A stretch of DNA of 64,000 nt from Muribaculaceae bacterium (GTDB lineage Bacteria > Bacteroidota > Bacteroidia > Bacteroidales > Muribaculaceae). Within the stretch, counting starts at the first letter, position 1. Each line of letters begins with the position of its first letter. The notes under the pieces were generated by a model, which worked only from the letters and a program-made list of their open reading frames with translations, was not told the origin of the DNA and made no database searches. Positions 1-39,507 of this stretch are shown in pieces. Position numbers and translations under genes: made by a program. The stretch lies in assembly GCA_017557425.1 (NCBI GenBank), contig JAFYYU010000007.1, positions 13,450 through 77,449 of the forward strand, given 5' to 3'.

Positions 1-701
1 AGCGCCTTCATCTGGTCGGCGGCATCGGTCGAGAATTCCTGCAGGTTGGCGTTGGTGCGGTCAAGTTCACGGGCGAAGTTGCGACGCATTTCCTTGATTT
101 TGCCGCGGTTGCTCAGGGCGGTGAGCAATGCCCACAGGCCCAGCAATGCTCCAAGAATACTCAGCCAAAGGGGCAGGTTGATGGGGCATGCAGGGCCTCC
201 ATGAGCACGGTCGGGTCGGCGGTCATGACGAGGACCACCGGGAGGCGGCGGCATATTGCCTTTGTCCTCCTGTACACCCTCGGGCGCCTCATTTTCAGGT
301 GTGTCGGCCGTGGCTTGTGCCATCTCGGGATGATCAGTGATGAAAGCGTTGAAGTCAGGCTCCACCAGCTTCCAAATCTGCGGGCTGACCAATTCCTTGA
401 GGTCGGCGATGCTGCCGGCTTTGCCTTCTTCCTTCTTGAACTCGTCGTAGATCTTCTCCCACTTATGGCCTTGGTTGCCATACACGTCGTTCAGGTCATC
501 CAGGGTATAGCCCTGGGGGTAGCGGGCTACCATCTCGTCAGTGCGTTTGGCAAAACCCTTGGCATAAGCCGTGTAGTGGGCACAGCGTGCGATACCCTGT
601 TTCCACAGGGCGTTCGACAACGTCTGATTCTCGGATACTTGCGCCAGTGCCGAGGTGGCGAGGCAGACGATGGCTGCCATGAGTAAAGTAAAACGTTTCA
701 T
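1..701 (-). CDS. Partial (runs off left edge) secreted/membrane-anchored protein: signal peptide, Pro-rich linker, TM helix, coiled coil
   Basis: Not in the ORF track. Manual translation from ATG at 701: MKRFTLLMAAIVCLATSALAQ...MPPPPGGP...LPLWLSILGALLGLWALLTAL-SNRGKIKEMRRNFARELDRTNANLQEF..., open to position 1. Starts 23 bp after the upstream gene's stop. Confidence 0.8.
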   Translation of the reverse strand, partial: MKRFTLLMAAIVCLATSALAQVSENQTLSNALWKQGIARCAHYTAYAKGFAKRTDEMVARYPQGYTLDDLNDVYGNQGHKWEKIYDEFKKEEGKAGSIADLKELVSPQIWKLVEPDFNAFITDHPEMAQATADTPENEAPEGVQEDKGNMPPPPGGPRHDRRPDRAHGGPACPINLPLWLSILGALLGLWALLTALSNRGKIKEMRRNFARELDRTNANLQEFSTDAADQMKA

Positions 702-724
702 AACTTTAAGAGATATTATGATTG

Positions 725-3700
725 TTATTGGTTAAACTTGCTGATTACGTCGTTGCGCAGGTTCTTGAGCAGGTTGTGGCGTATGACGCCGATGATGGGA
801 TAGAAGAACGGAACATCCTCGACCACATCGGTGGCATTGTAGCGACCCTTCAAGAAAGTATTGATGCCCGCTGTGAGGTAGTTGGCCAGGTTATCACTCA
901 GCACGCTCTCAAAGAGGCGCAGCACGTTGTTCTCGATGCCGAACTCGTCCTTGATGGTCGCGTCGCACAGTTCAACAAAGAACTTGTTGAATTCCTTGAC
1001 TTTTTCCACCAGGCGTTCGCGCACCTCGATGGACTCGACCTGCTCCATTGTCAGGTCGTCCTGGCCCAGCATCGAGCAGCAGTAACGCATGCGCTTGACA
1101 CTCGTGGCGTTGTAGCGGGCGACATCGGCCTGTCCCTCCAGGCGCTTGTTCTCCAGCTTGATGCCGCCGCGGCAGGTGATCTGCTTGGGACACTGGATTT
1201 CCTGCTTGATCTCGAACAATTCATGGTACTGTTTGCCGTAAACACGCTCGATAATCGTCTGGGTGAGCATGTTGATGCGGCTGTGCGAGCCCAGGATGTT
1301 CAATATCTTGCTGCCCGTGCCCGAGAAGTAGATCTGCTTGGGCATCTCATAATTGCGCAGCTTCATGGCCTGGGCGATGTAGTAGATGATGGCCGAGTAG
1401 AAGTACATGAAGATCAGGCGCCGCTGGCTGTCGTTGCGCAGCAGGGCGTTGTAGCTGTACAGGTTGCGGTCGATCTCGCGCAGGGTGCGCAGTTCCTCAA
1501 CATTCTCGATCGAGAACAGGAACGCGTTGATGTCCTCGCTGCGCTTCTGGGCCATGATGTCGGCCAGGATGCTGCTCAGGTAGGCGATGCTGTTGCCCTT
1601 ATCGTTATCGATGAGCTGCTTGAAGTAGCGCGTGTAGTGCTGCAGCAGCGGGTTGTTGTCGGCATCTTTGTCGGTGAAGCCGTCACCAAAGATGGCGTTG
1701 CCGGCAAAGCGGAACGACGAGATGGCCACCGGCTCGCTGCTCATGCGGTCGTCAGTGGGCTGGTAAATGACCGTGTCGCACGTGCCGCCGCCAATGTCGA
1801 TCGACACATAGCTGCTGCCGGCCACCTCGGCACCACTGTAGTAGTAGGCAGGGGCAAGGCTCTCAGGATATGAACGCAGACGGTCGCTGTCGGCACCGAT
1901 ATAGGTGTTGAACAGCTCATTCCATGTGCGCTCCAACGTGTCACGGTCGGCTCCACCCATGCTCACGGGGTAGAAGTAAACGATTTCGGTGCGGCGCAGG
2001 TCGGCATTCTCAAGCAGAGCCTTGGCCTTGATGAGCAGAGTGAGCTCACGCAGGAAGGCTCGTGCCAGTTCAGTATCGCCTTTCCACTTGAGGTTTGTGG
2101 TCACCTCATAGCCGTGGAAATAGCGGCGCTCATACAGGAACGGGATGTTGACGTCACTGAACAGGTTGCTGCCAATACCGCTGTTCTCGTTTCGTGCCAG
2201 TGTGGAACGCAAGGGGAAACCATACACGTTGTCAATCTCGCGGGGCACGAATTCAACACGCTGCACCTGCTCGGCATATTCCAGCGAATGGGGCTTGTGC
2301 AATGAGGCGACGAGCACCTGCTGCGAACCGTATTCAAAGGTGAATGGCTGTGAGGGCTGTCCGCGCTCGGCCCACTCGACGTGGGTGTTGGTGGTGCCAA
2401 AGTCCACAGCAAAGATGAGTTCCTTGGCGCTGGGATTGTAGGGTTTCCATTGCGGGATGATTACACCTCCGGCCCGGCCCAGATGGTTCTGGATGCTGGC
2501 CTCAATATAGTCGAACGAACCGTCCACGTCATAGTAAACGGTGCTGTAGCCAGAGTGTGAGCGGATGGCGTCACGCACATTCAGCCCGTCAGTCTTGATG
2601 CCGTTCTTGTAGAACCGCAACGTAGCTCCGCCGCTCTCAATCATCGTGAACAGTTCAACGGTGTAGTCGTCGTTGGCCTCGGTCTTGACAAACGGGAATA
2701 TTGACGTGGACAAGGTGGCGCCAATGATGCGGCCTGTGCCGCGGCGCTCGTCAAAGGTCCACGTGTGGTCGTTGATGGGGAAATACTTACGCGACAGCTC
2801 AATATAGCGGTTTTCGCCTTTCTTGACGCGGATGCGCAGGGTGACCATCACGCTGCCGTCGGCAAATTCCTCAATGTCCATCACGTGGCGGCCGGCGATG
2901 GTGCCCTTGATGTACTCAGTATCAAAATAGGTGAACAGCAGGGGCTTCAACGGCAGCAGGTAGCCGCACGTGGGGTTGGGAGTGCGCGGCTTGAGGTTGC
3001 CGTCGAAGAAGTGGTCGGTGTCGATGACGCAACCGCTGTCCAGCCGAACGAGCGTGTCGGTCAGGAAGTCATCGGTCGTGACAAACGGGTATTGTATCGA
3101 GGTGTCAGGCAGCTTGCGGTCGTTCAGGGGAACACCGCCGCCATACACTTGTGTGGCACTGTCCCACTCCTTGTCGATGTAGCAGAAATGCTCCACGTTG
3201 CCGTTAAAACCGTTGACCAGCACGAGCGGCAATTCGTTCTTGCCTTGAGGCAGGGTGGGGGTGATGACAAAGTCGCTCTCGCTGGCGGCAGAGCGGATAT
3301 CCAGCACTCGCTTGTGATAGAATCGGGCACCTAGCACGCTCACGTCAATACCACCGCCAAAGGGGTCGTAGTTGTGCTCCAGCTGCTCCAGAACGGTGCT
3401 GGCACGGCCCTCGTCCAGGGCATCCAGGTTGGGGATGACTGTAGCGATACGGCGGTACAGGTCGGGACGGTTGGCGCGCAGGGGCTCCAGGTTCTTCTGC
3501 ATGTAGGCATATACCTCGCCACAGTGCAGTCGCAGCGTGGGATAGGCGTTCATCAGCAGGTACATGTAGAAGACGAAGTCCTCGTCACGCTCCCACAGGT
3601 GACGCACCTCACCAAAGAGGCTCACGCCCTGCTCCACCTTGATGGCGTCAATGGTGCCCAAAGCGGGCGCTGCCATGACAACGGAAGCGGGCGATGTGCC

Positions 3701-4168
3701 GCCAAGCACCTGACGGTCCCACATCAGGATGTACCAGTCCTTGAGCAGGTCAAAATTATAGACCTTGTCGCTGCGCAGGAACAGGTCGAGCGTCTCGCCG
3801 TAGAGGCGGTGTTGCGGGTTAGCCTTCAACTGCTCCAGACATTCCTCGCGGTTCCAGCGGATGATGCGCAGGTAGTCCTTGTGGTTCTCGTAGTCAAAGA
3901 ACAGCTGTGCCACGTCAAGGGCGTTGGACACGAGGCGCTCGTTCATGCGGGCACCGCGCAACCGCTCGTTGGCCAGTTGCTTGAAGGCGTTCTTTACGAG
4001 GTCGAGCTGGGCCAGCGGGCTCGGAATGGCGGTGCGCGGGTTCTCGCTCAGTCCGCCGTCGGGGTCCTTGATGCGCGCGATGTCGTCGTCGCTGTACGGG
4101 GCGTGCCCGATCCAGTCCTCCTCGCCGCTCTTGCTCGTATTGTTGCTATAGGATAATATCTCGCTCAT
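725..4168 (-). CDS. 1147-aa protein with unknown N-terminal half and C-terminal actin/Hsp70/FtsA-fold ATPase
   Basis: Phosphate-1 AVDFGTTNT, connect YPESLA, phosphate-2 SIDIGGGTCD and adenosine-like YFSGTGSK, in the correct order. Confidence 0.8.
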   Translation of the reverse strand: MSEILSYSNNTSKSGEEDWIGHAPYSDDDIARIKDPDGGLSENPRTAIPSPLAQLDLVKNAFKQLANERLRGARMNERLVSNALDVAQLFFDYENHKDYLRIIRWNREECLEQLKANPQHRLYGETLDLFLRSDKVYNFDLLKDWYILMWDRQVLGGTSPASVVMAAPALGTIDAIKVEQGVSLFGEVRHLWERDEDFVFYMYLLMNAYPTLRLHCGEVYAYMQKNLEPLRANRPDLYRRIATVIPNLDALDEGRASTVLEQLEHNYDPFGGGIDVSVLGARFYHKRVLDIRSAASESDFVITPTLPQGKNELPLVLVNGFNGNVEHFCYIDKEWDSATQVYGGGVPLNDRKLPDTSIQYPFVTTDDFLTDTLVRLDSGCVIDTDHFFDGNLKPRTPNPTCGYLLPLKPLLFTYFDTEYIKGTIAGRHVMDIEEFADGSVMVTLRIRVKKGENRYIELSRKYFPINDHTWTFDERRGTGRIIGATLSTSIFPFVKTEANDDYTVELFTMIESGGATLRFYKNGIKTDGLNVRDAIRSHSGYSTVYYDVDGSFDYIEASIQNHLGRAGGVIIPQWKPYNPSAKELIFAVDFGTTNTHVEWAERGQPSQPFTFEYGSQQVLVASLHKPHSLEYAEQVQRVEFVPREIDNVYGFPLRSTLARNENSGIGSNLFSDVNIPFLYERRYFHGYEVTTNLKWKGDTELARAFLRELTLLIKAKALLENADLRRTEIVYFYPVSMGGADRDTLERTWNELFNTYIGADSDRLRSYPESLAPAYYYSGAEVAGSSYVSIDIGGGTCDTVIYQPTDDRMSSEPVAISSFRFAGNAIFGDGFTDKDADNNPLLQHYTRYFKQLIDNDKGNSIAYLSSILADIMAQKRSEDINAFLFSIENVEELRTLREIDRNLYSYNALLRNDSQRRLIFMYFYSAIIYYIAQAMKLRNYEMPKQIYFSGTGSKILNILGSHSRINMLTQTIIERVYGKQYHELFEIKQEIQCPKQITCRGGIKLENKRLEGQADVARYNATSVKRMRYCCSMLGQDDLTMEQVESIEVRERLVEKVKEFNKFFVELCDATIKDEFGIENNVLRLFESVLSDNLANYLTAGINTFLKGRYNATDVVEDVPFFYPIIGVIRHNLLKNLRNDVISKFNQ

Positions 4169-4220
4169 GTTGATGATATTTTCTCTTTTTTCTAAAGCCT
4201 AATAACCTAAAACCTAAAGC

Positions 4221-5744
4221 CTAGTTGATGTTTTCGAAGCGCTCGGTGAATATCTTATGGGCAGCCTTGTTGAACAGGTCCAGCAGCTTGAATTCCACGG
4301 TGCGGTCGCTGTAGCTGGGGTTGTCCTTGCTTAACTTGTTCATCTCGGCCTTGAACACGTTGTTGTCCACGGTTTTGTGGCCGAAAAGGGCCTTACGCAC
4401 GTTCACGCCCTCGATGGCATGGGACATGTCAATCTCGCCTGGCTTGAAAAGGGCCACGCTGCGCATGTTGTCGTTCATCTCGGTGAGCCACTGGGCATAG
4501 GCCAGCAGGAACTGGTCCACCAGGGTGCGGTAGAACTGCGAGGCCAGGAAGTCGCTCTTGATTTTGGGGGCGTCTTCGGTAAAACCTTGTCCGATGATGT
4601 CCTTGAAACCCGTGGTCAGGAACAGGAACAGCAGGTGGAACTTGCTCATGGGCTCATAGATGAGCTGGCGCGTGCGGCGGCCCAGCGACAGGAAGTTGAT
4701 GCTCAGCTCGTCCTTGGCCAGAGCGTACTCATAGGCCGTGGTGGGCAGGGGATAACCGTCCATGTCGGTCAGCTTGTTTTCGGGCACACCGGCAAAGTCC
4801 AGCGGTGCCAGAGCACCGATAAGCTCAATGAAATGGGCGTTGTTGCGTTGCCCGTGCTCACCTGGATCATACAGGTAGGGCTTGCTTCTTACTTGGTCGC
4901 CCAGATAGTAGATGCTGTTCACGTTGCTGTCGTTAGCGCCGGTGAGCGTGTTCTTGTAGTAGTAAAGCGCACTTTGGGTCTTGACGATGAAGTCGCTCGT
5001 GGCGATGCGCTGGTCCTGCTTGTTGCCCTCCAGGGTGAAGTAGGGGAGCACCGTCAATCCACCGATGGGCGCACGGCTCAGGGCGTCGCGGTTTTCTATG
5101 CCTTCCAAACTGGCTGCCTGGCGGATGTTCTTGACCATGATGGGGAAGCCCGAAGCTCCCGTGCCGCCAAAGATCGAGCTGATGAAAAAGATGCGGTCGC
5201 CCTGGCGGAAAATGTTGCTGAAGGCCTTGAACTCGTTGCTGTCCTTGATTTCGTTCAGCGCCACGCTGCCGATGTTGGGACTGCCCACGAAGCCGATGTT
5301 CATCTTGTTCTCCAGCTGATAGTTGGCAAATAGCAGTGACGTCAGCGCCTGGTTGGCCTCGTTCATCGTGTCATAGCCGATGAATTCGCGGAATTTGCTG
5401 TTTTCCACGGCACCTAGGTTGAAGATGAACGTGTCGTTCAACGTCACGCTGGTGTTGCTCATGATTTCGCGCAGGGTGACGATACGGTTGGCGAAGAATC
5501 CGTCGGCGTTGGGCTCGTTGCCGTACAGCTTGCGGCGGATGTCGCGGTAGTCGTTGAGCATCGCCTCGGTGCGCTTCAGGTCCTCGTTGGCCTTGTGCGG
5601 GTCGATGATGACGGGCACGATTTCCAAGTCCTTTACCGGCTTGCCGTTCTCGTCAAGGGGACGCACGCCGGCTGCCGACAGCATCAGCAGTGACTTCAGC
5701 ACCCTTGATCCGGTACCTCCGATAGCAAAAAGGAATAGTCTCAT
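4221..5744 (-). CDS. Divergent FtsZ/tubulin-like GTPase
   Basis: N-terminal AIGGTGSRV, T3-like GFVGSPNIG, tubulin-signature-like SIFGGTGASG, and LTVLPYF (cf. FtsZ TxPF). Confidence 0.8.
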   Translation of the reverse strand: MRLFLFAIGGTGSRVLKSLLMLSAAGVRPLDENGKPVKDLEIVPVIIDPHKANEDLKRTEAMLNDYRDIRRKLYGNEPNADGFFANRIVTLREIMSNTSVTLNDTFIFNLGAVENSKFREFIGYDTMNEANQALTSLLFANYQLENKMNIGFVGSPNIGSVALNEIKDSNEFKAFSNIFRQGDRIFFISSIFGGTGASGFPIMVKNIRQAASLEGIENRDALSRAPIGGLTVLPYFTLEGNKQDQRIATSDFIVKTQSALYYYKNTLTGANDSNVNSIYYLGDQVRSKPYLYDPGEHGQRNNAHFIELIGALAPLDFAGVPENKLTDMDGYPLPTTAYEYALAKDELSINFLSLGRRTRQLIYEPMSKFHLLFLFLTTGFKDIIGQGFTEDAPKIKSDFLASQFYRTLVDQFLLAYAQWLTEMNDNMRSVALFKPGEIDMSHAIEGVNVRKALFGHKTVDNNVFKAEMNKLSKDNPSYSDRTVEFKLLDLFNKAAHKIFTERFENIN

Positions 5745-5781
5745 TTATTGAGTTTTTAGTTGTTAGTCCTTGGTTGTTAGT

Positions 5782-6237
5782 TTATTGCGGCAGTGGTGTG
5801 TGGCGGCAGTTGCTGCTCCACCAGCGCATCGAGTAGGATGCCACGATATACAGCAGGGCGGCAAACAGCACCGTCTGCATCTCGAACTGGATGGATTCGC
5901 CGACGTACAGCAGTCCGTTGTTGGCAAACACCGTGTCGTTGTAGATGTAGCACACCACGGGAGCCAAAACCACCACTACTCCCATGATCGCCAGCCAGTG
6001 GTACCAGCGGTCGAACTTCACCGAGTTGATGGCATAGTAGTAGATGGCGGCGCCGCCCCATGCCACAAGGATGGTGATGGCGGCAATTACGGGATACATG
6101 TTCAGATTGTACATCTTGTCGTTGTAGCCCTGGTTGAAGAACATTTGTTCCCAGATGTTGAAACCGTCACTGCAGCTGAGGATGAAAAACAGCACGGTTA
6201 TTACGATTCCGGCAATCAGATACCCTAAATGTTTCAT
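5782..6237 (-). CDS. Small integral membrane protein (~4 TM)
   Basis: Four hydrophobic segments. ATG at 6237 (MKHLGYL) avoids overlap with the upstream gene. Confidence 0.8.
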   Translation of the reverse strand: MKHLGYLIAGIVITVLFFILSCSDGFNIWEQMFFNQGYNDKMYNLNMYPVIAAITILVAWGGAAIYYYAINSVKFDRWYHWLAIMGVVVVLAPVVCYIYNDTVFANNGLLYVGESIQFEMQTVLFAALLYIVASYSMRWWSSNCRHTPLPQ

Positions 6238-6280
6238 TATTTCAATTATTTTGTCTGTTTCTGTTGTTAGACGGTGAATA

Positions 6281-7732
6281 TTACCGTTGAAGTTGCACGA
6301 TGACGTCAAAATAGCTGCTACCGCCCTTCATGGCGTCAAACATGCCGCCCAGCAGCTGTTCCAGGCCCAGCGTGGTCGTGGAGAACGATCCACCGGCACT
6401 CGTGTCGTTGTTGCTTGACGACTGGCGCACCCACCCAGGCAGTTCGTTGCGCAGCGAGATGTGTATCTCGTCACGCGGACTCTTCAGGTCGCCCACGAGC
6501 GTCAGCACATGGGTCATGCCTTCGAGATACTCTTTGTTGTTGGCCGTCAGCATGCCAGGAACGATGGGTTGCACGGTCAGCGTGTATCCGTCGATGCTCT
6601 TGACTTCGTAGTTGTCGGCATTGGTCAGGATGTCATCGTTCTTCATCAGTCCGCTCAGGTCAGCCGCCAGTGAGAAGCACAGTTTGCCCGTCTGGCGGTC
6701 GCCGTCACACTTGGCCAGCACGATGCCGTCGCCATGCTTGACACGGAAACGGCCCGCATTGTCTTTCCACTCGGGAAGCACGCGGCAGGGCAGTTCGGCG
6801 GTGGCTTGGTTGAAGCGGTAACTGTTGCGCAGGCCCGCAGCATCCAGCACCCCGCTGTAACGCTTGTCCTGAGCCAGCTGGTCCATCACGTCGCCATCGG
6901 CGATGATGACCAGATAGAACGGACGCTTGCCGTTGTACTCAAAGGGAACCCCGTTGTAAGGGTAATACTTGCCGCTGTAGTCGCCCATGAACTGCTGCAC
7001 CACCACGCTCTTGCCCTTGTAGCGGGCAAACACGCGCGTGGCCAGGCTGTTCTCCTCGTTGAAAATCTTGTCCAGGCTCACACCGTGCGTGTCCTGCGGC
7101 GAGTAGATGAGGTCGCTTACCAGCACACTCACGTTGCCGGGACGCTGAGCCTCCAGAATCTTGTTGAAAATCAGCTGGAAGTCGGTATAGCTGGCATTGC
7201 CCACACCTGCCGTGCTCTGGTAGATGTCGCGGTCCTTGAGGAACTCGTCCACTGTGTGCTGGTAGGGGTAGATGCCGTCGTTCACGATGTTGATTTCGAC
7301 TTTGCTGCCGGCAGGGAAATGGTTGATGAGGTCGTTCACGGCCTTTTTCAACTGGCCTCCTCCGCCTCGCTGGTCATAGGGCACCATCGAGCCGCTGCGC
7401 TCAAAATACACCGTCAGCGACAGGTCTTCCACGCCGCCATAGGGGCGCGTGTCCCAATGCATCGGCGGACGCAGCTGTGACCCTATTTCCTCGATAAAGG
7501 CGGCCAGTTTCTTGTGGTCCACACGACCCTCGGGGGTCAACATGTCGCCATATTTCCCGGGGTTTTCGGTAATCAGCGTGCACAACGAGTCATAGGCCAC
7601 CCGTGTCGTGTCGCCACTCACCAGAATGCCACGCACGGCCTTGTCCAGCCGACCGTGTCCACCACAACCCATCAAGGCCACCATCAGCAGGCAGCCCATC
7701 AGTAGCAACGGTAATCGTCTCATATATGTCAT
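6281..7732 (-). CDS. Lipoprotein with vWA-like domain
   Basis: Lipobox LMVALMG-C. MIDAS-like LTVYFERSGSM, YTDF and VLVSDLIY. Start is 7732 or 7723. Confidence 0.7.
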   Translation of the reverse strand: MTYMRRLPLLLMGCLLMVALMGCGGHGRLDKAVRGILVSGDTTRVAYDSLCTLITENPGKYGDMLTPEGRVDHKKLAAFIEEIGSQLRPPMHWDTRPYGGVEDLSLTVYFERSGSMVPYDQRGGGGQLKKAVNDLINHFPAGSKVEINIVNDGIYPYQHTVDEFLKDRDIYQSTAGVGNASYTDFQLIFNKILEAQRPGNVSVLVSDLIYSPQDTHGVSLDKIFNEENSLATRVFARYKGKSVVVQQFMGDYSGKYYPYNGVPFEYNGKRPFYLVIIADGDVMDQLAQDKRYSGVLDAAGLRNSYRFNQATAELPCRVLPEWKDNAGRFRVKHGDGIVLAKCDGDRQTGKLCFSLAADLSGLMKNDDILTNADNYEVKSIDGYTLTVQPIVPGMLTANNKEYLEGMTHVLTLVGDLKSPRDEIHISLRNELPGWVRQSSSNNDTSAGGSFSTTTLGLEQLLGGMFDAMKGGSSYFDVIVQLQR

Positions 7733-7784
7733 TCTAAACGTTTCTCTAGTCCAATAATAATCTGAAAGTAACAATATTAATATG

Positions 7785-7792
7785 CAAATTTA
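7785..7792 (-). promoter_or_regulatory. Bacteroidetes -7 promoter element (TAAATTTG) for the tubulin/actin operon
   Basis: Matches TAnnTTTG on the minus strand about 55 bp upstream of the lipoprotein start. Confidence 0.55.
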
Positions 7793-7849
7793 GTGCCGTT
7801 TTCCACATTATCTATGAAATTGCGTGTTAAAAAGTGTTTTTCCGACGGC

Positions 7850-12158: not shown

Positions 12159-12716
12159 ATGTATAATATGAAGAGGGTCTTGTTATTGTGTATGCTGGCA
12201 TTTTTTGCTATAACAACAAGTTTCGCTACGGACTTTAACTATTATTATGATGGATATTGGGGCGAATGGTACAACGCGTATGGGGTTTGTCTTAAAGGTG
12301 ATTTTTCTGGATTTATTTGTTATTGGTATCACAATGGAGATGGTTCCTTGCGAGATCACCCTTCACAATGGTTCTTAAAAATTCAAATAAAAGATTATAT
12401 AGAACCATCACAAGTAATAAAGGACGCTCATCTCAAAGATAAAACTTGGTATGAATATACTGGAACCGTTGAGTACTACATCTCTGATGAGTATCAAGAT
12501 ATCAAAAGTGTACTTAAAAGTGCCTTAAACCCGATTCAACATTTTGTTAGACCTAGTAAACATCGAGTTGAGAAAGGAGAAACGCCTTGTGTGAAAAAAA
12601 CCGCACAAGCAACAATTAAAATAGCACCTTATAAAGACAATCCTAAGGATTACAATATTTGGTTTGACGGTGTTGGAATAGGTATTAGTATAAAAGACAC
12701 TGATTTTAAAAAATGA
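12159..12716 (+). CDS. Secreted hypothetical protein, paralog A
   Basis: Signal peptide; aligns end to end with 15756-16313. Stop overlaps the precursor start (ATGA). Start may be 12168. Confidence 0.8.
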   Translation: MYNMKRVLLLCMLAFFAITTSFATDFNYYYDGYWGEWYNAYGVCLKGDFSGFICYWYHNGDGSLRDHPSQWFLKIQIKDYIEPSQVIKDAHLKDKTWYEYTGTVEYYISDEYQDIKSVLKSALNPIQHFVRPSKHRVEKGETPCVKKTAQATIKIAPYKDNPKDYNIWFDGVGIGISIKDTDFKK

Positions 12717-13213
12717 AAGACGAGGTGCAATCAAGACGACGGTTCTTTAAGAATGTCGCAAAAACAGTCCTTCCTATATTAGGATGTTTGGCATTACCTG
12801 GCCCAATTAAAGCCGCAATTAGTGAGGTCTCAAATAGTCCTCAAGTCTCTCAAACATGTGGCGGTTCTTGCACTGGCCTTTGCACTACTTCGTGTTATAA
12901 TGGTTGTAAGACCGGTTGTAAAGGATGTAAAGGTAGTTGTGAGAATGGGTGCACAACTACCTGTGGCAGTGGTTGTGGGCAAGGGTGCAGCGGATCATGT
13001 AGAAATACATGTTCTACATCATGTCAAACCATTTGTCGTGATAATTGCATCTCATCTTGTTCTGGCACTTGCTCTAGTGGGTGCCAGGGTGATTGCATGT
13101 TTGGTTGTAGCGGCAACTGTCGTGGAGACTGCACTGGTACTTGCAAGGGCCGATGTAGTTATGGATGCTCTGGATGCTCTGTTCAGGTTTTTGGCGTCAG
13201 CGTTAGGTTTTGA
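12713..13213 (+). CDS. Cys-Xaa-Xaa-Xaa repeat radical SAM target (RiPP precursor)
   Basis: Twin-arginine-like leader SRRRFFK, then 28 Cys almost all in CXXX register; adjacent to a radical SAM gene. Confidence 0.9.
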   Translation: MKDEVQSRRRFFKNVAKTVLPILGCLALPGPIKAAISEVSNSPQVSQTCGGSCTGLCTTSCYNGCKTGCKGCKGSCENGCTTTCGSGCGQGCSGSCRNTCSTSCQTICRDNCISSCSGTCSSGCQGDCMFGCSGNCRGDCTGTCKGRCSYGCSGCSVQVFGVSVRF

Positions 13214-14436
13214 TGTATCCGATTAAACAAGAATCAGTAGAGTGGCAGTCTGGGAAAGCAAAAAACATCACGTTTATTGTAACGAAGGACTGCCAGCTGG
13301 CTTGCAAGTATTGTTATCTTGTAGGTAAGAACGATAAGGAGCGGATGTCTTGGGGCACTGCTAAAGAAGCTATTGATTATATTCTTGGACATGAAACTGA
13401 TTTCCCCGAAGAGAGTGTAGTTTGGGAATTCATTGGAGGTGAGCCGTTTCTGGAAATAGAGTTGATTGATCGAATCTGCGACTACCTCAAGGTCGAAATG
13501 TTCCGACATGGGCACCATTGGTTTGACAGTTACCGTTTCTCATTCTCGACTAATGGTATAAATTACCACTCTGAAAAGGTTCAACAGTTTATTGAGAAGA
13601 ACCACACACATCTATCCATTGGTATTACCATTGATGGAACACACGCTAAACATGATTTAAACCGTATCTATAAGGGTAATGGTCCAATAGAAAAAGGCTC
13701 TTATAATGATGTGGTGCGTAACATCCCATTGTGGTTAGAACAGTTCCCTGGAGGTGGCACCAAAGTAACTATTAGTAGCCCAGATATTCCATATATCTGT
13801 GAGAGTGTGTTGCATCTATACAGCCTTGGCATTCACGAGGTAAATATTAACTGTGTATTTGAGGATGTTTGGAAAGATGGAGATGACCGTCTATATGAGA
13901 ATCAATTGATACAACTGGCTGATGCAATTATTGATGGTGAATATTACAAAGATTATGCTTGCTCATTTTTTAGCGAAATAATAGGCAAGCCACTTGACCC
14001 GAAATTACATAATGAAAACTGGTGTGGTGCAGGAAAGATGCTAGCAGTAGATGCGAGTGGAAACTTTTATCCATGCACTCGTTTCGCAGCATATTCGTTG
14101 CGTGAAAAGCATCCAATTATCATAGGCAATGTTTATGATGGTATTGATAAGAACAAATTACGCCCGTTCCTGACATTGGATCGATTGACTCAAAGCCCAA
14201 GAAAATGCATTGAGTGCGAGATTGCTAGCGGTTGCGCCTGGTGTCAAGGGGAAAATTATGATGCAGCCGATACTTCGACAATTTATCAGCGATCCACCGC
14301 TATCTGCCTAATGCATAAGGCTCGCGTGCGCGCAAATAATTACTATTGGAATAAACTCTACCGCAAGTTGGAACTGGAAGGCGAACGAGAGCAATTTGAA
14401 AACAATAGACCTAAGTTAAACGATATCATCTGTTAA
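13213..14436 (+). CDS. Radical SAM/SPASM peptide maturase (CXXX-repeat target family)
   Basis: CQLACKYC, FIGGEP, STNG, ITIDG, SPASM CGAG..C..CIEC...CAWC. TGATG coupling to the precursor. Confidence 0.92.
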   Translation: MYPIKQESVEWQSGKAKNITFIVTKDCQLACKYCYLVGKNDKERMSWGTAKEAIDYILGHETDFPEESVVWEFIGGEPFLEIELIDRICDYLKVEMFRHGHHWFDSYRFSFSTNGINYHSEKVQQFIEKNHTHLSIGITIDGTHAKHDLNRIYKGNGPIEKGSYNDVVRNIPLWLEQFPGGGTKVTISSPDIPYICESVLHLYSLGIHEVNINCVFEDVWKDGDDRLYENQLIQLADAIIDGEYYKDYACSFFSEIIGKPLDPKLHNENWCGAGKMLAVDASGNFYPCTRFAAYSLREKHPIIIGNVYDGIDKNKLRPFLTLDRLTQSPRKCIECEIASGCAWCQGENYDAADTSTIYQRSTAICLMHKARVRANNYYWNKLYRKLELEGEREQFENNRPKLNDIIC

Positions 14437-14440
14437 TGCC

Positions 14441-15385
14441 ATGCTTCAGTACATGATTATATTGCTTGATGATACGAGCACATCGTTCTGTCACTATGAC
14501 GTAAACACTGCTAAGAAACGACTCATCAACCTTGACGACCTTCGCGCAGGCATTCGTATGGCGATGATTGAAAACTTGACCATCCAGTTCGTATATCCCG
14601 ATTATGATCTGCCCCAAGAATATAGAGACGTTATCCGCACTATTGACCACAGCGATATCAAGCCATTGACAAATGCCACGCAAGAAACTGATGTGATGAC
14701 TCTTGATGGATGGAGTTGGCATGTGGAAACGCAATATCTTGAGTCTCGGATTGTGGTTATTCGCACGTCGTTGCATGACCTGCTTGCGCATGGCGACGAA
14801 GTGGCTGTATTGTTGTCAAAAGCGCAGCGCCTTAATGTGGTTATTACAGACGTGGAACGGTTCTCCGATGACCAGCAAGTAATATACAATGAATGGCTCG
14901 GCAAGATGGGGCAAGAAGTTGAACGGCTATATGTTAATGGCACGTTGCCTCAATTCAATCTCTTGACTGACCGTATGATTCTAATGACCATGAACAACTG
15001 TGGTGCTGGAAACTCCTGTATCACTTTGGCTCCTAACGGCAAGTTTTACATCTGCCCTGCATTCTACTATGAGAATCATGAGGATAGTGTTGGTGATTTA
15101 GTGAATGGAATCATCATTCCCAACAATCAGCTTTATAAGCTGGATAATGCTCCCATATGCCGGAATTGTGATTCATGGCAATGCAAGCGTTGTGTATGGC
15201 TCAATCGAAAGATGACGCTTGAAGTTAATACGCCTAGTCATGAGCAATGCGTGATGGCTCATCTGGAACGCAACGCTTCTCGTGACTTGTTATTAAACAT
15301 TCGAAAACATGGTGCTTTCCTCCCCGAGACACCTGACATTCCTAAAATAGATTACCTTGATCCTTTTGATAATATCAATAACTAA
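14441..15385 (+). CDS. CXXX-repeat peptide maturase (degenerate rSAM with SPASM domain)
   Basis: No CxxxCxxC (only SFCHY), but retains CGAG..C..CPAF..CRNC...CKRC. Confidence 0.8.
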   Translation: MLQYMIILLDDTSTSFCHYDVNTAKKRLINLDDLRAGIRMAMIENLTIQFVYPDYDLPQEYRDVIRTIDHSDIKPLTNATQETDVMTLDGWSWHVETQYLESRIVVIRTSLHDLLAHGDEVAVLLSKAQRLNVVITDVERFSDDQQVIYNEWLGKMGQEVERLYVNGTLPQFNLLTDRMILMTMNNCGAGNSCITLAPNGKFYICPAFYYENHEDSVGDLVNGIIIPNNQLYKLDNAPICRNCDSWQCKRCVWLNRKMTLEVNTPSHEQCVMAHLERNASRDLLLNIRKHGAFLPETPDIPKIDYLDPFDNINN

Positions 15386-38094: not shown

Positions 38095-39429
38095 CTAATC
38101 CAACAACTTGACCAGGTCTTTCTTCATTTCCTCATCAATGTCCCTATATCGCTGGAAAGCTTTGCTGCCTTCCTTATGACCAGATAGGGCAGAAACAAGG
38201 TTTGGGTCTTTGACTTTTCTGTAAATGTTACCAATGAAAGTCCTACGTGCCATGTGGCTACTGGCGACTTCATAAATGGGACGCTTTACCTCCTCACGTG
38301 TCAGAGTGTCTAACGTGGTAACAATCCGATCAATGCCAGCAAGTTTGAAAAACTCCTTGATGGCCTTATTGTATTTCTGCTCAGAAATAAAAGGAAGGAG
38401 ACCGGGACCTTCAAAATCCTCGTAGCGTTTAAGAATCTCTTTCGCTCTCTCGTTAAGCGGAACACGAACCGTTAAGGGTCGTCCTTCTTTAGTTTTCTTG
38501 GGAATATACTCAATAGCACCATTGACAATACTCCGTTTTGTCATTCTGTAGAGGTCGCTAACGCGGCAGCCGATGACAGACTGGAAAATGAAGATGTCTC
38601 GCTGAATGGCAAGTTGTGGCCGTGCAGACAAATCCGCGTTCCAGATCTTCTCCCTCTCGTCTAATGATATATAGACGGGTGTACCATACAGGCACTCTTC
38701 AATGGGGAATTTGTCAAAAGGACGATTAGTAGTCTTTCCATTCTCATAACACCACAAGAAAAACGTCCTGATGCGTGAGAAACAATCAATCAATGTGTTC
38801 TTGCCTCTTGGCTGCGGGGTTCGCTTTTCAGGTATGTCCTCGTAGATTTGAGGGTACTTCTCAAAGTACTTATACTCATTCTCAAAGAAGTCCCACATAT
38901 CTGCAAGCGTTTCCCTGGTTACTTCGTTCACGTCAAGAACAAAATCTTTCCTGTTTCGCTTGGTTTTCTTGACATATAGCTCATATCGGAGCATGGAACG
39001 TTTAACCACCCTGAAATTCTTCTTACGGACTTCAGAAAGACGGTGTTTCTCCAGGAATTCATCGAAAAGTTGCTCAAAGGTTTGTTTCTTTTCTCCTTCT
39101 GGAGTGAATTTGTCGGGGTTATAGTATCTGAATAGGGTGGCTTTGAGCCAGTCCTTATCCAGGTTGTCCTTGTCCCGGTCATATTCCCTCTCGATGAAGC
39201 CTTTGAGTTTACGGAGTTCTTCATTGGTCTCTGTACGAAGCTTTGAATCACAAATAGCCTTTGACTTGATACACTCATTTTTCTCGTCCCATAAATTAGG
39301 ATTGATGGTGAGTTCTGTCTGGGCAACTGAATCCAACCTTCTGCCATCCCTTAGGCGCAAATATATGGTAGCTGTCGATTCCGTGTCATACCGTTTGGCC
39401 GATTTCTTGATAATAAATGTAACTTTCAT
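38095..39429 (-). CDS. Tyrosine site-specific integrase
   Basis: N-terminal arm-binding domain (IYLRLRDGR); catalytic GCRVSD, KKT, HMARR, SGH, RY. Confidence 0.93.
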   Translation of the reverse strand: MKVTFIIKKSAKRYDTESTATIYLRLRDGRRLDSVAQTELTINPNLWDEKNECIKSKAICDSKLRTETNEELRKLKGFIEREYDRDKDNLDKDWLKATLFRYYNPDKFTPEGEKKQTFEQLFDEFLEKHRLSEVRKKNFRVVKRSMLRYELYVKKTKRNRKDFVLDVNEVTRETLADMWDFFENEYKYFEKYPQIYEDIPEKRTPQPRGKNTLIDCFSRIRTFFLWCYENGKTTNRPFDKFPIEECLYGTPVYISLDEREKIWNADLSARPQLAIQRDIFIFQSVIGCRVSDLYRMTKRSIVNGAIEYIPKKTKEGRPLTVRVPLNERAKEILKRYEDFEGPGLLPFISEQKYNKAIKEFFKLAGIDRIVTTLDTLTREEVKRPIYEVASSHMARRTFIGNIYRKVKDPNLVSALSGHKEGSKAFQRYRDIDEEMKKDLVKLLD

Positions 39430-39507
39430 GTTTTTTTCTGGTTGTTGGGATAGTGTGTAAATAGCTTTATACAAAGGTAATACTTATCCTAAAAATGACC
39501 AAAATTT

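Follow-up and report, generated by a model that had tools for sequence, protein, structure and literature searches.

The locus described here raises the question of what a bacterium does with a tubulin-like gene and an actin-like gene that lie side by side, outside its division cluster and among genes for membrane and exported proteins. It lies at the left end of a stretch of 64,000 nucleotides (nt) from a Muribaculaceae bacterium (GenBank assembly GCA_017557425.1, contig JAFYYU010000007.1; G000:C3:13450-77449 in our numbering), referred to below as the window, and consists of six genes, A to F, all on the minus strand, of which A-E are in the window and F is to its left. The initial annotation took the locus for an accessory machine of two filaments coupled to a surface sensor. 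We favour a different reading, to which we give a probability of about one half: that the products of A-F would form a single envelope-anchored, nucleotide-switched surveillance machine of conflict-system descent, whose core is a 1:1 unit of C and D rather than two filaments.

Gene C (4221-5744, minus strand) encodes a protein of 507 amino acids (aa) predicted to be a divergent GTPase with the tubulin/FtsZ fold. Its AlphaFold model is of good quality (predicted local distance difference test, pLDDT, 88; predicted template modelling score, pTM, 0.90), and a comparison with 48,161 chains placed members of the tubulin/FtsZ family, and no others, in the first 17 rows, ahead of dehydrogenases at Z 9.3. 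The best match was CetZ (Z 15.9, root mean square deviation, rmsd, 3.0, 203 aligned residues), PhuZ was also among the top matches, and the likeness spans residues 1 to ~360; Foldseek agreed weakly (best E 4.7e-4). Sequence comparison is less telling: the best E in a search of the PDB was 0.25, alignment of the C profile to the genome's own FtsZ was weak, with a low probability that makes it a hint only, and C scores 14.4 bits against Pfam Tubulin_2 (PF13809; gathering cut-off 27), a model against which three of the six distant homologues scanned reach 27.1-37 bits. In an alignment of 75 sequences (36 stand-alone and 39 fused to D, see below) the T1-T4 motifs (GGTG, D48, GxxGxPNxG and FGGTG) are conserved and a helix resembling H7 (Q299/H304/E307) is nearly invariant. 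Model and motifs together indicate a GTP-binding fold of the tubulin/FtsZ superfamily, as the initial annotation had proposed. The same alignment holds no conserved T7 loop: the equivalent stretch (~319-335) is variable and often gapped, and the sole acidic column above 80% between residues 312 and 364 is E339, which is located on a strand. The C-terminal part is helical in the model, and the FtsZ-type alpha/beta C-terminal domain is replaced.

Gene D (725-4168, minus strand) encodes 1147 aa (AlphaFold pLDDT 88, pTM 0.79), in the model of which we distinguish an N-terminal domain predicted to bind C (1-295), a beta-rich middle part, an ATPase fold (~581-1024) and a helical tail. The ATPase domain matches MreB, Hsp70 and ParM in Foldseek (E 2e-9) and reaches Z 11.9 by VIA (rmsd 4.2, 268 aligned residues), with near-equal Z scores for ParM (11.9), PilM (11.4), MreB (11.2) and BiP (11.0), so that filament-forming actins score about the same against D as do Hsp70, FtsA and PilM. 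It carries the phosphate-1, phosphate-2, connect and adenosine motifs of actin/Hsp70 ATPases, and 144 aligned sequences show no variation at D589, G591, T592, K694, E769, D791, G793, G794, D798 or G950. By sequence alone the PDB search was weak (best E 4.6e-4, to MreB), and alignments of the D profile to the DnaK, MreB and FtsA of this genome had low probabilities and are hints only. The model thus places D in the actin/Hsp70 ATPase superfamily; the description of the whole 1147-aa protein as actin-fold has to be narrowed to residues ~581-1024 and widened in kind, since Hsp70 is equally close, although the model has no Hsp70-type beta-sandwich after the ATPase domain but a helical tail instead.

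Several lines of evidence bear on whether C and D act together. We found 39 longer homologues of C and all 39 consist of C followed by D in one chain with short linkers (1197-1644 aa, median pairwise identity 31%); one such fusion was seen in a genome locus (L117), within the usual operon. On a quick tree of 57 rows with long branches, which included 22 of the 39 fusions, the fusion label changes five times and at least two of these changes are forced by well-supported branches, so that on this tree the fusions arose more than once. A complex model of C with D(1-295) scored 0.88, as compared with 0.01 for the best of three controls, with at least 89% contact agreement between runs and a pLDDT no lower than 85 for either partner. 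Of 157 solved complexes, 116 pass the mark set for this score, as do two of 215 mismatched pairs, counts that apply only roughly to alignments of this kind. In the predicted interface D W19 faces C 338-340, a conserved motif of D (45-57) takes part and D W105 faces C helix 130-137, while D residues 1-50 modelled alone are poorly ordered (pLDDT 44-65). Columns of D at the interface were more often at least 90% conserved than others (15/75 versus 16/220, Fisher p 0.004) in the 144 sequences, which were not used for folding; in the alignment that was folded the threshold test gave p 0.25 and the rank test p 6e-5. Interface columns of C are likewise more conserved than its others (p 0.013). PDB searches turned up no similar complex of the C-D type. 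The model of C with D(1-295) supports binding, and because all of the longer homologues are fused and the complex scored so far above its controls, we predict that C and D form a tight 1:1 heterodimer and are one unit.

This result bears directly on the two-filament machine of the initial annotation, in which C and D would each form cytomotive filaments as an accessory cytoskeleton. Both folds do come from superfamilies that form filaments, the top matches include CetZ, PhuZ, ParM and MreB, and the nucleotide motifs are invariant, but the variable or gapped T7-equivalent region of C, the replacement of its FtsZ-type C-terminal domain and the near-equal scores of Hsp70, FtsA and PilM against D fit such filaments poorly. 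The large predicted interface together with repeated fusion weighs against independent polymers, and we regard two separate filaments as very improbable; a co-polymer of C-D units may form. Contacts between proteins of the tubulin and actin folds are normally made only by adaptors or short tails, as with FtsZ and FtsA. Direct binding, and fusion on several occasions, would, if true, be a new way to couple cycles of GTP and ATP. In related loci other genes are found inserted between C and D: a PD-(D/E)XK gene of the GxxExxY type (~450 bp) in L003, L004, L019 and L029, and an AAA-type gene in L069.

The remaining proteins are predicted to lie at or in the envelope. Gene A (6281-7732, minus strand; 480-483 aa) encodes a predicted lipoprotein with a vWA-like domain. 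The list of open reading frames starts it at a TTG at 7774, whereas the ATGs at 7732 and 7723 suit the promoter and the lipobox better. The protein has a lipobox Cys, an ExSxS motif resembling a metal-ion-dependent adhesion site (MIDAS) and Asp204, and the Cys and Asp204 are invariant in 29 aligned homologues; a cyanobacterial homologue (profile match 1e-12) has the canonical DxSxS. The nearest Atlas look-alike cluster, found with a language model, is auto-named 'VWFA domain-containing' (0.98), while Pfam and PDB searches with sequence and profile gave no useful match. The lipoprotein part of the original description thus stands on the lipobox, and we call the domain vWA-like on the strength of the motif and the look-alike. 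Gene B (5782-6237, minus strand; 151 aa), found in 77 of 80 related loci (the best 80 of 194 found, mostly close kin and hence not independent), encodes a small membrane protein that had been assigned four transmembrane (TM) segments; three hydrophobic peaks are clear and the fourth is weaker, so we count three to four. Gene E runs on the minus strand from 701 to 1 of the window and on to G000:C3:12984, with 233 of its 388 codons inside. It would comprise a signal peptide, an exported domain, one TM segment, a helical and acidic linker and a conserved C-terminal cytoplasmic domain; that domain is common to distant variants of the cassette, and we therefore take A-E as its core. The sequence left of the window, which completed E, also revealed the sixth gene, F, 108 nt beyond it (G000:C3:12390-12875, minus strand; 161 aa), with an MJ0042-type zinc ribbon, a linker and a C-terminal TM segment (E 3.5e-4 against TIGR02098, slightly below the cut-off of that model). 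The predictions support A, B, E and F as an envelope-spanning set. None of the six proteins has a Walker A motif, and none scored above cut-off in Pfam, NCBIfam or PADLOC.

The arrangement of these genes supports the view that they form a genuine accessory operon, separate from the division cluster. The five tightly spaced minus-strand reading frames of the initial annotation were all recovered, with spacers of 23-52 nt, and the next gene after F is a convergent recO-like gene, so that the operon would end at F. Of the 66 related loci with enough flank, 63 have all of A-E in this order (one of the exceptions is a lineage in which A is not adjacent), which bears out the conservation of gene order in other genomes, and F is next in line in 59 of 66 testable loci and absent from distant copies. 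At 55.9% GC the operon is richer than the genome (52.1%), as had been noted, and there are no mur or ftsQ genes beside it: canonical ftsA-ftsZ, mreB and dnaK are on other contigs (C1, C14 and C11, respectively), as judged by short motifs. A second FtsZ-like gene away from the division cluster (G000:C14:86537-87544, 336 aa) retains the GGGTGTG motif in full, along with a segment that resembles T7. The E-F spacer (108 nt, G000:C3:12876-12983) contains AT-rich inverted repeats of short units, and similar short-unit repeats are present in the C-D and B-C spacers. Contigs from RNA runs (four runs from four studies) cover A-E, and in three of the four also F, and some of them bridge the D-E junction in three runs; they come from relatives and may be DNA, and do not allow the genes to be ranked.

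Upstream of gene A lies TAAATTTG (7785-7792, minus strand), which we take to be a -7 promoter box of the Bacteroidota type. By count alone this TAnnTTTG element, seen before the operon by the initial annotation, is at chance level (47 in the window versus 39.6 expected, with 12 of 100 shuffles reaching 47), but by position it holds up: 72 of 73 related loci have such a box no more than 200 nt upstream of A, and in close relatives its distance from the start is mostly 67-68 nt. Further upstream a TAACA-N5-TAACA direct repeat (7825-7839, minus strand; the copy in the window has one mismatch) is found 46-47 nt from the box in 39 of 72 loci and may be the site of a regulator. It defines no regulon, as only four sites in the genome are similarly spaced from a -7 box, and a literature search on a possible link with RprY gave nothing.

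The operon is core in its genus: D is present in 79 of 81 genomes, including 40 of 40 of high quality, and the two in which it was not found are 58% and 74% complete. Within the family C was found in 24/24 genomes of this genus, 6/6 of a second genus and 45/270 others, and across the phylum there were seven strong matches in 400 genomes. Homologous cassettes are also present on cyanobacterial plasmids; cultured carriers are Prevotella sp. oral taxon 299 F0039 (A-E in order) and the Picosynechococcus and Gloeothece plasmids. No homologue of C was found in 50,697 phage records. The operon is under strong purifying selection, with median ratios of non-synonymous to synonymous substitution, against 39-41 close loci, that are lowest for D (0.055) and C (0.058) and rise through B (0.07), A (0.11) and F (0.14) to E (0.18). 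The same genus holds a second, divergent copy of the operon (L100 in G492:C14, and G768:C81) with an extra D paralogue that lacks the N-terminal C-binding domain, and in L114 (G595:C1) an IS4 transposase interrupts D.

Fixation and purifying selection of this kind would suit a lifestyle function, and another possibility, which we consider unlikely on the whole, is that the C-D core drives a focal adhesion-like or membrane-remodelling machine (for adhesion, cell contact, vesicles or slow surface movement) like Agl-Glt of Myxococcus. The two parts lists run parallel when compared by domain type only: a vWA lipoprotein (CglB in Myxococcus, PMC9946355), a zinc-ribbon membrane protein, a GTPase, an actin-fold protein and an ion motor. 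Gene F, with its zinc ribbon, linker and TM segment, invites comparison with GltJ, the N-terminal zinc ribbon of which couples a GTPase switch to MreB (PMC11135422), and Makarova and Koonin (PMC2875224) favoured membrane remodelling for FtsZl1. The likeness is at the level of domain type only, however; Agl-Glt uses a Ras-like GTPase, an ordinary MreB and at least 17 proteins, whereas here there are a tubulin-fold C and an actin/Hsp70-fold D, distant copies lack F, and the search for a stator in this genome found none. The mobile elements that carry the cassette next to restriction and toxin-like genes also fit less well with this reading.

That carriage was seen among 27 distant loci (L091-L098 and L100-L118), eight of them from the phylum and 19 from the family, the latter picked for divergence from 85 matches. 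Ten of the 27 have a MotA/MotB-like pair (by a profile built from seven of them), whose best PADLOC matches are ZorA/ZorB, with E down to 1e-14, although the ZorB1 scores are far under the NCBIfam cut-off. Other additions are trypsin-like, DnaJ, FGS-like, extra Hsp70-like, HscA-like and GrpE-like genes; tyrosine recombinase or relaxase genes adjoin L106, L107, L113 and L115, and a type IIG restriction enzyme with DprA/ShosA adjoins L112. A segment of 13,018 bp is 100% identical between genomes of two genera, for which contamination is possible. TerD genes are present in 6 of the 27, with OmpA and a Ca-type P-ATPase nearby, and this raises the alternative of a Ter-type module for envelope or metal stress, in which C-D would be a regulated chaperone pair and A would sense divalent cations. 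The DnaJ-, GrpE- and HscA-like neighbours in other loci would fit, as would the dedicated regulator that the conserved upstream repeat suggests. We nevertheless hold it to be rather improbable, as the TerD-bearing variants are the most divergent clade, TerD was not found in this genome and the beta-sandwich expected behind an Hsp70-type ATPase domain is missing from the D model.

In other genomes the cassette is found on mobile elements in the company of ZorAB-like motors, proteases, DnaJ or TerD, and this suggests a conflict system; of the three functions first proposed for the locus (membrane remodelling, cell contact or defence) defence is the one best backed by gene context, although fixation throughout a genus is unlike a typical patchy anti-phage system. 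The surveillance machine that we prefer has several further observations to contend with. Most defence systems are patchy and change fast, whereas this operon is core; profiles found no ZorAB-like or TerD gene in this genome, which is 85% complete; no PADLOC model is matched by any of the six proteins, and the operon contains no nuclease or other recognizable effector. MotAB-like pairs, moreover, serve motility and transport as well, and the complex model covers C and D 1-295, so that contacts of C with the ATPase domain, like any signalling chain from A to D, are hypothetical.

We infer each step of the mechanism, from sensing to output, as follows. Lipoprotein A would bind a ligand or sense damage outside the inner membrane through a metal-dependent vWA site, and B and E would relay the signal across the membrane, the cytoplasmic domain of E (here with F) tethering C-D. 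In the predicted complex the N-terminal arm and first domain of D wrap around C, which would act as a GTP switch whose cycle, as C has no T7 loop of its own, might depend on its partners. The state of C would then gate the ATPase of D, and D would assemble or remodel a target complex at the membrane. Mobile relatives may couple this output to ZorAB-like ion motors, trypsin-like proteases, DnaJ or TerD, while in this genus a stator-less version is fixed and probably provides standing envelope surveillance. A more specific form of the proposal is put forward tentatively, as somewhat short of an even chance: C and D would be a bacterial machine of a new class, an obligate GTPase-ATPase heterodimer or fused chain in which the D arm replaces the C-terminal domain of FtsZ and the GTP state steers ATP-driven assembly on a trans-envelope signal. 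Mobile elements would have carried it to genomes across Bacteroidota and cyanobacteria, and one rumen genus would have domesticated it.

Elsewhere in the window a low-GC integrative element (19279-39474) carries a phage-type integrase (38098-39474), Fic, primase/helicase-like genes and a BREX-like cluster made up of a PAPS-reductase-domain protein, a DUF6079 ATPase, an unannotated 806-aa protein, BrxL and an OLD-type AAA/TOPRIM protein. We rejected this island, 11 kb away, as defence context for the operon: it is a separate low-GC element, and the neighbours of the operon vary among relatives, with 37 clusters among 67 upstream genes (from crude gene calls). At 12713-15382 a gene for a 166-aa Cys-rich peptide with CxxxC repeats precedes one for a radical SAM protein and then a second gene without annotation, an arrangement that may be a maturation cluster for a ribosomally synthesized and post-translationally modified peptide; it is flanked by genes for two similar exported proteins of 185 aa. 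Some 9 kb to the left of the window (L001 1328-4522) there are three tandem paralogous exported proteins of 324-338 aa.

A match to a system already characterized was looked for and none was found; a literature search covering few subscription papers turned up no study of this gene set, and the supplements of Kaur et al. (2020) could list such loci. The nearest known systems are the predicted FtsZl1 operons of Makarova and Koonin (2010; PMC2875224), in which a long coiled-coil FtsZl1 has vWA, MotA/OmpA and GTPase neighbours, and the kinship with FtsZ-like neighbourhoods suggested by the initial annotation is borne out. Both have, in addition to a normal FtsZ, a divergent tubulin domain in which T7 and the C-terminal domain are not canonical, a vWA neighbour (here by motif and look-alike) and, in some loci, a MotA/OmpA-MotB pair, and Deinococcus loci in file 5 of that paper resemble the present operon in gene order (hypothetical, small protein, tubulin, MotA, OmpA). 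Intact FtsZl1 proteins are, however, 732-1393 aa long and mostly carry a long coiled coil, along with a helical C-terminal domain, whereas C has 507 aa and a compact model. File 5 contains no locus with a tubulin of ~500 aa followed by an ATPase of ~1100 aa, although a Magnetospirillum locus there has a DnaK-like gene of 1626 aa three genes from the tubulin. FtsZl2, as described in the same paper, has an intact T7, an alpha/beta C-terminal region of ~300 aa, no conserved neighbours and a distribution in Proteobacteria, and C is unlike these; a 2023 phylogeny (PMC9871819) has, in the part available, Tubulin_2 proteins merely as outgroup.

Closer to the conflict reading are operons with tubulin, HSP70, vWA, DnaJ and FGS domains that Kaur et al. 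(PMC7159879) read as conflict systems. Their GAP1-N2 DO-GTPase systems share with the present cassette membrane-proximal operons and tubulin, HSP70, vWA, DnaJ, GrpE, FGS and trypsin domains; they are defined by TRAFAC GTPases together with GAP1 and FNIII proteins, whereas here no protein of the operon has a Walker A motif (GAP1 itself was not searched for), and they are systems of Firmicutes and Actinobacteria in which tubulin and HSP70 belong to separate themes that do not overlap, whereas here tubulin and ATPase are always side by side or fused. With Zorya the link is through relatives of the operon, which carry ZorA/ZorB-like stator pairs that the locus in the window and its 85%-complete genome do not have; Zorya effector models matched none of the relatives' neighbours tested. 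Mobile copies with stators, set against a fixed copy without one in a single genus, make it possible to follow in nature how a conflict system turns into a core one. A directly bound C-D pair would make the question of what FtsZ-like Tubulin_2 proteins do, raised in 2010, directly testable, and the predicted interface offers residues for mutation. The operon is an uncharacterized variant of the predicted FtsZ-like/vWA envelope systems, set apart from them by its predicted heterodimer of a tubulin-fold and an actin-fold protein.

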